A DNA stretch of 64,000 bases from a virus (Duplodnaviria; Caudoviricetes): IMG/VR virus record IMGVR_UViG_3300028283_000231. One strand, written 5' to 3'. Below the pieces are notes generated by a model. It was not told the origin of the DNA and did no database searches. It saw only the letters and a program-made list of their open reading frames with translations. This document shows positions 27,768 to 27,979 of the stretch, piece by piece. The position numbers were made by a program, and so were the translations under genes. The number at the start of each line of letters is the position of its first letter. Positions within the stretch are counted from its first letter, which is position 1.

Positions 27768-27896
27768 ATGTTATTCAATTCAAACATATCTGTAAAATTT
27801 ACACCAGCCCCCGCAGTAGCGTTTAGACGCGGCACGGGAACAGGCACCGGCACATGTGTGCCAGCAGGGTGTGGGTTTGAAGGTATGAATGGATAA
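27768..27896 (+). CDS. 42-aa putative leader peptide MLFNSNISVKFTPAPAVAFRRGTGTGTGTCVPAGCGFEGMNG
   Basis: AAGGAG Shine-Dalgarno upstream; manual translation; unusually GC-rich codons. Confidence 0.75.
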   Translation: MLFNSNISVKFTPAPAVAFRRGTGTGTGTCVPAGCGFEGMNG

Positions 27897-27949
27897 AGCC
27901 CCCTTATACCTCAACATAAGCCAGAAAATTTAGACTGGCACCCACACCC
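27867..27949 (+). promoter_or_regulatory. Putative antiterminator: GGGTGTGGG (27867-27875) pairs with CCCACACCC (27941-27949)
   Basis: Perfect 9-bp complementarity overlapping the terminator 5' arm; internal hairpins TTGAAGGTAT/ATACCTCAA and GCCAG/CTGGC. Confidence 0.7.
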
Positions 27950-27979
27950 AAAGGCGAAAGTTTTTGGGTGTTTTGTTTT
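27945..27979 (+). terminator. Intrinsic terminator upstream of the tRNA cluster
   Basis: CACCCAAAGGC-GAAA-GTTTTTGGGTG followed by TTTTGTTTT. Confidence 0.85.

Follow-up and report, generated by a model that had tools for sequence, protein, structure and literature searches.

Short leader open reading frames (ORFs) with a run of regulatory codons are found in the enterobacterial ilvGMEDA, ilvBN and thr leaders and more generally in trpL, hisL, leuL and pheL, and these leader-peptide attenuators are among the closest described counterparts of the element considered here, which shares that arrangement. Leader-peptide control also extends to a component of the translation apparatus, as is proposed here, in the case of pheM, a leader that attenuates the phenylalanyl-tRNA synthetase operon pheST through the supply of cognate charged tRNA. 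T-box riboswitches bind uncharged tRNA directly, by means of the Stem I specifier and the UGGN bulge, and do so without translation. The control of tRNA genes is commonly attributed to promoter strength and growth rate. Why phages carry large tRNA sets, and by what means they deploy them, is a matter of debate, the reasons proposed being codon mismatch, host shut-off and escape from tRNA-cleaving defences. We analysed a 64,000-nt stretch of phage DNA (IMG/VR record IMGVR_UViG_3300028283_000231, Caudoviricetes; hereafter the window, to which all coordinates refer unless a locus is named), in which a 42-codon ORF and an intrinsic terminator stand in front of a tRNA array (Table 1). On the basis of sequence comparisons we consider it highly probable that this element is a ribosome-mediated (leader-peptide) transcription attenuator gating the array, and that synthesis of these tRNAs is probably restricted to times when translation of Thr, Pro, Ala, Val, Arg and Gly codons is slow. 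An attenuator had already been proposed in an initial annotation, and the proposal is supported by the co-variation of paralogous leaders with their cargo, by complements of the terminator arm, by conservation among orthologues and by RNA contigs.

Leader codons and tRNA cargo

As the initial annotation had it, the window contains a 42-codon ORF with an AAGGAG motif upstream, and 21 of the 23 codons at positions 12-34 specify just six amino acids, the exceptions being Phe19 and Cys30. Composition-matched shuffles of this 67%-GC core contain 13.7±1.9 matching codons per 23 and reach 21 in 2 of 20,000 cases, which rules out GC composition as the source of the bias. The other two sense frames yield 11-12 matching codons of 24, so that on the sense strand the bias is specific to the frame of the ORF. 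All the synonymous codons listed originally are found in the core, namely Ala GCC/GCA/GCG, Thr ACA/ACG/ACC, Gly GGC/GGA/GGG, Val GTA/GTG, Arg AGA/CGC and Pro CCA/CCC. The array downstream has at least 16 tRNA genes, the first of which starts at 28042, and they serve exactly the six amino acids of the core. ARAGORN reports the anticodons Arg TCG/ACG/CCT/TCT, Thr TGT/GGT/CGT, Val TAC/GAC, Ala TGC/GGC, Gly GCC/TCC/CCC and Pro TGG, and a tRNA-Ala(CGC) that it missed was recovered as an Rfam match at 28529-28597 (G3:U70 pair, loop GU-CGC-AA); with this addition the anticodons named in the initial annotation, Ala CGC included, prove correct. Counted against the ARAGORN and Rfam tRNAs together, 18 of the 21 core codons are exact Watson-Crick cognates of array anticodons, and the core CGC codon fits the array anticodon ACG via inosine.

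The array also includes several non-canonical tRNA-like genes without an assigned identity. A tRNA of Ala identity (G3:U70) in which the anticodon arm is replaced by ~50 nt lies at 31315-31420, and non-canonical tRNA-like matches are also found at 29559, 32444, 32657 and 32817.

Table 1. Positions of the leader element, its predicted RNA switch and the surrounding features
Feature	Position	Strand	Description
Promoter-like motif	27712-27742	+	GAAAAAAATGACTTTTTT, 5-nt spacer, AATATATA; conserved in all orthologues
Shine-Dalgarno-like AAGGAG	27753-27758	+	9 nt 5' of the ATG
Leader ORF	27768-27896	+	ATG 27768, 42 codons, TAA 27894-27896
Region 1, predicted anti-antiterminator 5' strands	27785-27805	+	CATATC 27785-27790 and AAATTTACACC 27795-27805
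Putative sensing core, codons 12-34	27801-27869	+	21/23 Thr/Pro/Ala/Val/Arg/Gly
Region 2	27867-27888	+	GGGTGTGGGT 27867-27876 (codons 34-37) and GGTATGA 27882-27888
Spacer, stop codon to region 3	27896-27940	+	(C)CCCTTATACC, single-stranded TCAACATAA, hairpin GCCAG-loop-CTGGC 27920-27939
Region 3	27940-27949	+	ACCCACACCC, common to antiterminator and terminator 5' arm
Intrinsic terminator	27944-27980	+	12-bp stem, GAAA loop (27944-27971), then TTTTGTTTT
Candidate nested second terminator	27979-27992	+	TATAAGGG and T run
GTTCTTTGACATCTTGA motif	28013-28029	+	13 nt before first tRNA; also written GTTCTTTGACAT
tRNA array	28042-33300	+	Arg x4, Ala x3, Thr x2, Val x2, Gly x3, Pro; tRNA-like genes; HNH endonuclease ORFs
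tRNA-Thr(CGT)	36588-36673		Further tRNA beyond the array
LR756501 tRNA arrays	Loci L022-L028, ~169-208 kb and 359-368 kb	-	

What we regard as the decisive test of the predicted attenuator is a comparison of five leaders within one genome. LR756501, a 735-kb uncultured huge phage that shares ~90% identity with the window over 20 kb and 99.5% over 27660-28045, was used as a proxy for the window's whole genome. It has 66 tRNA hits and five large arrays sorted by amino acid, which jointly cover all 20 amino acids, and each array is preceded by a promoter-like motif followed by a short ORF and a terminator. The leader core IINMIQEQMQQIQ precedes the Met/Gln/Ile(TAT)/Glu array (matching core stretch, 12/13), YNDYCIND the Ile(GAT)/Cys/Asp/Asn/Tyr array (8/8), seven Leu residues encoded by all six Leu codons the Leu array (7 Leu), SKHSKHFSSSSKWF the Trp/His/Phe/Lys/Ser array (14/14) and the present leader the Arg/Thr/Val/Ala/Gly/Pro array (21/23). 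When leader composition is set against array content in a 5x5 matrix, the diagonal is the maximum of every row and every column, and of the 120 ways of pairing leaders with arrays the true one scores highest. Co-variation of leader codon content with tRNA content, which the initial annotation had envisaged for related phages, is thus strongly positive among the five leaders of LR756501. Furthermore, the leaders of the Ile, Asn, Tyr, Lys and Leu arrays are AT-rich and equally codon-matched, and because of this the objection that the core bias reflects a GC-rich leader region (48-67% GC) in an AT-rich window (about 30% GC) is answered at the level of the family as well. All five leaders contain, beyond the core and towards the 3' end of the ORF, an 8-10-nt perfect complement of the terminator 5' arm; these complements are of three unrelated sequences, and a match as good is reached by 7-87 of 20,000 shuffles. 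Five such channels, each with its own array, appear to operate in the phage and between them serve all 20 amino acids.

Two further observations concern the tRNA loci of LR756501. Two amber-suppressor-like tRNAs (anticodon CTA) lie apart from the arrays, at ~690.6 kb. In L023 (reverse complement, 900-1270), a 123-aa ORF that we take, by the look of its sequence, to encode ribosomal protein bL12 is located between the terminator of the Tyr/Asn/Asp/Cys/Ile leader and the tRNA array, and would therefore fall under the same attenuator.

Conservation and transcription of the leader

Orthologues were collected with a peptide search, which returned one diverged 36-aa relative, and with a metagenome scan for an invariant 18-mer, which returned the rest; together they comprise seven distinct versions with 72-83% identity. 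Three of the nine metagenome 18-mer matches (L013, L020 and L021) were discarded as chance. Exact-pattern scans of viral contigs gave chance matches alone, in unrelated, mostly GC-rich contigs, and no related loci were found when the 135-aa protein encoded upstream served as the query. All seven versions have an ORF of 33-42 codons that starts with ATG. The distances from the ATG to AGACGC (57, 57, 54, 57, 51, 45 and 57 nt) are all multiples of three, as are all indels before the end of the core, the sole frameshift (L016) lying after it. Each version has 21-26 Arg, Thr, Val, Ala, Gly or Pro residues, the order of which is free between a conserved Thr-Pro and a conserved Arg-Arg. GGTATGA, near the end of the ORF, is nucleotide-invariant yet read in three frames, as expected if translation matters but the peptide does not. 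Thus, composition and RNA are conserved and peptide sequence is not, a pattern expected of a sensing leader but not of a functional peptide. The Shine-Dalgarno motif of the initial annotation is present in the window, but of the seven orthologues three have AAGGAG and the remaining four an A-rich stretch in its place. The genes upstream vary among relatives, and in the orthologues with enough downstream DNA for array linkage to be scored the element always precedes an Arg-first array of Arg, Thr, Val, Ala, Gly and Pro tRNAs.

These patterns bear on the alternative that the locus is a stand-alone small-protein gene with its own terminator, encoding a functional 42-aa peptide, while the tRNAs are transcribed from a promoter at GTTCTTTGACAT. 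Conservation of the ORF, of its start codon and of the N-terminal MLFNSNIS stretch among the orthologues would suit such a gene, as would the strong terminator after the ORF and the conserved motif between that terminator and the first tRNA. However, the core conserves its composition and not its residue order, the C-terminus is read in three frames over invariant nucleotides, and even the N-terminal codons are nucleotide-invariant and pair with the 3' end of the ORF. Moreover, the four paralogous ORFs encode unrelated peptides, each mirroring its own array, every leader ORF bears a complement of its terminator arm, and RNA contigs continue from the leader into tRNA 1. We therefore regard a small-protein gene as very unlikely.

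In four orthologues (L008, at 6215-6400, L015, L016 and L018) a GC-rich structured RNA of ~180 nt is inserted between the terminator and the first tRNA. It has no Rfam match, and the GTTCTTTGA repeats on either side of it may be a target duplication; L019 and L014 have a small ORF in its place.

The promoter-like motif ahead of the leader follows the consensus GAAAAAAnWGACnTTTT..ATATATA, of which LR756501 has 8 strict copies in 735 kb, with 0 in the reversed control. It heads four of the five LR756501 tRNA-array leaders in its strict form and the fifth as a variant, and the transcript probably starts just downstream of it. Two other strict copies in LR756501 were considered as further leaders and rejected; ordinary protein genes follow them. 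In addition to the leader copy, the window has copies at 33322-33352 and 52342-52372, and apart from the tRNA leaders the motif also stands ahead of an RNA/RtcB region, of the HNH gene that follows the array, of a lipoprotein gene and of a large gene that looks structural. A Bacteroidota-type -7 box, TAAATTTG, with CGCAAACTTT before it, lies at 27686-27693, a short way 5' of the phage promoter motif; both are conserved in the orthologues, and the box beside the phage motif points to tandem promoters that belong to two classes.

Between the terminator and the first tRNA no sigma-70-type promoter was found on the + strand, and the Bacteroidota -7 motif TAnnTTTG, which is not enriched in the window, has no copy in that interval. 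The motif at 28013-28029 falls inside the interval in which, according to the initial annotation, a promoter would speak against attenuation, and it may be a processing signal, or a second or internal promoter. In the form GTTCTTTGA(C/A)nTnTTGA, found at 28013-28029 and at 29779-29787, it is almost exclusive to tRNA arrays and often stands 10-20 nt before a tRNA. LR756501 has ten copies with at most one mismatch, all ten on the tRNA strand and eight of them inside tRNA arrays, and among the orthologues the motif moves together with the 5' flank of the tRNA.

Contigs identical to the window, from two lake metatranscriptomes, span 27737-28115 and 27780-28115, so that leader, terminator and tRNA 1 are joined on both. 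The longer contig begins in the predicted promoter motif, upstream of the ATG, and ends at the 3' end of tRNA 1; its depth is 17.7, compared with 2.9-4.9 in neighbouring contigs (roughly four-fold). The contigs are consistent with a leader-tRNA precursor and with natural read-through. Both stop at 28115, one base past the tRNA 1 discriminator, at a place where C and then A stand in the genome. These ends may reflect post-transcriptional CCA addition, because CCA-bearing reads would branch from the genomic sequence at this point in the assembly.

The predicted switch and its standing

Region 2 of the leader RNA has two alternative sets of partners, region 1 on the one hand and region 3 plus TTATACC on the other. 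In the first, CATATC pairs with GGTATG (27882-27887) and AAATTTACACC with GGTGTGGGTTT (27868-27878). In the second, GGGTGTGGG (27867-27875) exactly complements CCCACACCC (27941-27949), which overlaps the terminator 5' arm; the pairing of codons 34-36 with that arm, claimed initially, is thereby borne out. The complement of 27940-27949 in region 2 is perfect over 10 nt, a result matched by 12 of 20,000 shuffles. The terminator is likewise where it had been placed, although the terminator scan gives its stem 12 pairs (27944-27971) rather than 11, followed by TTTGTTTT. Duplex energies of the three pairings are nearly equal (1:2, -21.1; 2:3, -21.5; 3:4, -18.0 kcal/mol), and the fold of the leader region has a z-score of -3.8. 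In the minimum free energy fold, TATAAGGG can pair with CCCTTATA (27901-27908), enclosing the terminator. Most orthologues have a GGGG-containing counterpart of TATAAGGG, in a varying register, and together with its T run this sequence possibly forms a second, nested terminator. Of the five leaders in its genome the present one has the highest GC content and the most elaborate structure, a long invariant spacer included.

The OFF fold is paired in 92.6% of orthologue cells and the ON fold in 98.8%. Within the pairing of regions 1 and 2, the CATATC strand is paired in 100% of cells and the AAATTTACACC strand in 82%; in the ON fold, TTATACC (27904-27910) is paired with GGTATGA in 100%. The terminator stem shows compensatory changes at 3 positions across the orthologues, region 3 is invariant in all of them, and the near-invariant spacer is the most conserved part of the element. 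Invariance of elements with two partners fits dual pairing, yet it is no evidence of covariation.

We infer from these elements that the ORF is translated, that ribosomes stall in it, and that the switch has the following direction and closes a feedback loop. Transcription would begin at the phage promoter motif and yield an RNA carrying the codon-matched 42-codon ORF. With no stalled ribosome, region 1 would pair with region 2, the terminator would form and RNA polymerase would halt about 60 nt before the first tRNA. If Thr, Pro, Ala, Val, Arg or Gly codons were decoded slowly, a ribosome or a queue of ribosomes would occupy the core or the stretch behind it, region 1 would be blocked, and region 2 would pair with ACCCACACCC, removing the 5' arm of the terminator and letting the polymerase proceed into the array. 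The new tRNAs would then relieve the stall and the switch would close again.

Several observations weigh against this scheme. Thermodynamic folding of the nascent RNA of this leader favours the antiterminator even without a ribosome; as the minimum-energy fold already prefers the 2:3 pairing, the OFF state must rely on kinetic, co-transcriptional trapping of 1:2. Ribosome footprints at codons 19-29 leave region 1 physically uncovered, and stalls there would need steric exclusion or a queued second ribosome to block it, while region 2 stays exposed when a ribosome waits at the stop codon. The ON-state helices are invariant, so that they give no covariation signal within the orthologues, and the near-invariant spacer is only partly explained by the switch. 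The antisense frame of the core is also rich in the same amino acids (20/24). Of the 21 matching core codons, 11 have G or C as their third base where the synonymous codon usage of the phage predicts 3.0±1.6, a bias that could serve RNA stems and not the sampling of isoacceptors. The GTTCTTTGACAT motif before the first tRNA could be an independent promoter bypassing the switch. Finally, the RNA contigs are no proof of one continuous transcript, nor of where it ends or how abundant it is, and DNA can be present in an RNA library.

Some of these points would be natural for a non-coding structured RNA (a small RNA, or a protein- or tRNA-binding leader) whose frame and codon bias are by-products of GC-rich stems. 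Such an RNA would account for the antisense bias and for a GC content of 48-67% against about 30% around it, as well as for the fold z-score and the position of the most conserved stretch, which lies downstream of the stop codon; moreover, ~59% of core shuffles are stop-free. It would leave unexplained a bias that exceeds composition (2/20,000) and is missing from the other two sense frames, and the in-frame length of all indels before the end of the core. The AT-rich yet codon-matched leaders of the Ile, Asn, Tyr, Lys and Leu arrays argue against it too, and no Rfam family matches at E<=1. Overall, we consider a purely structural RNA very unlikely.

A different alternative is that the attenuator is coupled to translation but responds to translation capacity in general, or to the availability of ribosomes, or that it works in reverse, with efficient translation leading to read-through. 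The same architecture would respond to any slowdown of elongation, and both the antiterminator-favouring minimum-energy fold of the nascent leader and the free region 2 under a ribosome at the stop codon are compatible with it. However, general sensing leaves unexplained why five codon sets match their own cargo. Moreover, although thermodynamic folding with a masked ribosome does not discriminate for this leader, region 2 becomes free and the antiterminator folds when the core of any of the other four is masked by a ribosome. With the ribosome placed at the stop codon, the antiterminator fails to form in the Ile/Cys/Asp/Asn/Tyr and Leu leaders, which is the classical direction. We thus judge general or reversed sensing to be very unlikely and favour the codon-specific attenuator.

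How far the codon-specific attenuator extends in function is more speculative. It is conceivable, though doubtful, that the five leaders define five tRNA regulons with a readout at the level of isoacceptors, in which blocks would be switched on only where host tRNAs are depleted or cleaved, for example by anticodon nuclease attack or phage-induced host shut-off, and which would together form a self-tuning homeostat that secures codon supply and counters host defence. Plain feedback on decoding capacity would account for the findings no less well than a role against anti-tRNA defence.

Comparison with known attenuators

Rfam searches of 26500-38000 at E<=1 gave no match to known leader families (Trp_leader, His_leader, Leu_leader, Thr_leader and similar), nor, for the leader element, to any RNA family besides tRNA, and a full-text literature search found no published account of leader-peptide control of tRNA genes. 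If the attenuator reading is true, the phage gauges how fast individual codons are decoded and produces tRNAs as they are needed. Such leaders could serve as compact, programmable sensors of individual tRNA supply, and the five leaders in one genome would be natural controls for specificity swaps.

With T-box riboswitches the element would share terminator read-through tied to tRNA status and targets related to translation. A T-box was considered and rejected: the resemblance at TTAGACTGGCACC sits in a simple 5-bp hairpin stem (UGGC) and not in a bulged antiterminator, no Rfam T-box matches, and a conserved ORF is present in place of Stem I. The pheM leader differs in being bacterial, in sensing one amino acid and in having a protein-coding synthetase operon as its cargo.

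The element also resembles the enterobacterial leaders. There, too, three overlapping pairings (1:2, 2:3 and 3:4) end in an intrinsic terminator, and peptide sequence is unimportant whereas codon identity and RNA pairing are conserved. As in the multivalent ilv and thr leaders, a single leader would sense several amino acids. In contrast to enterobacterial leaders, the present one would sample six amino acids, with up to three synonymous codons each, and its stop codon lies 18 nt beyond region 2 rather than before it. It belongs to a phage in which each tRNA block has a leader of its own, and it bears no sequence relation to the enterobacterial leaders. Above all, the cargo is not an operon for amino-acid biosynthesis, transport or a synthetase, but an array of tRNA genes. 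The logic of attenuation is known; tRNA genes as its proposed cargo set this element apart.
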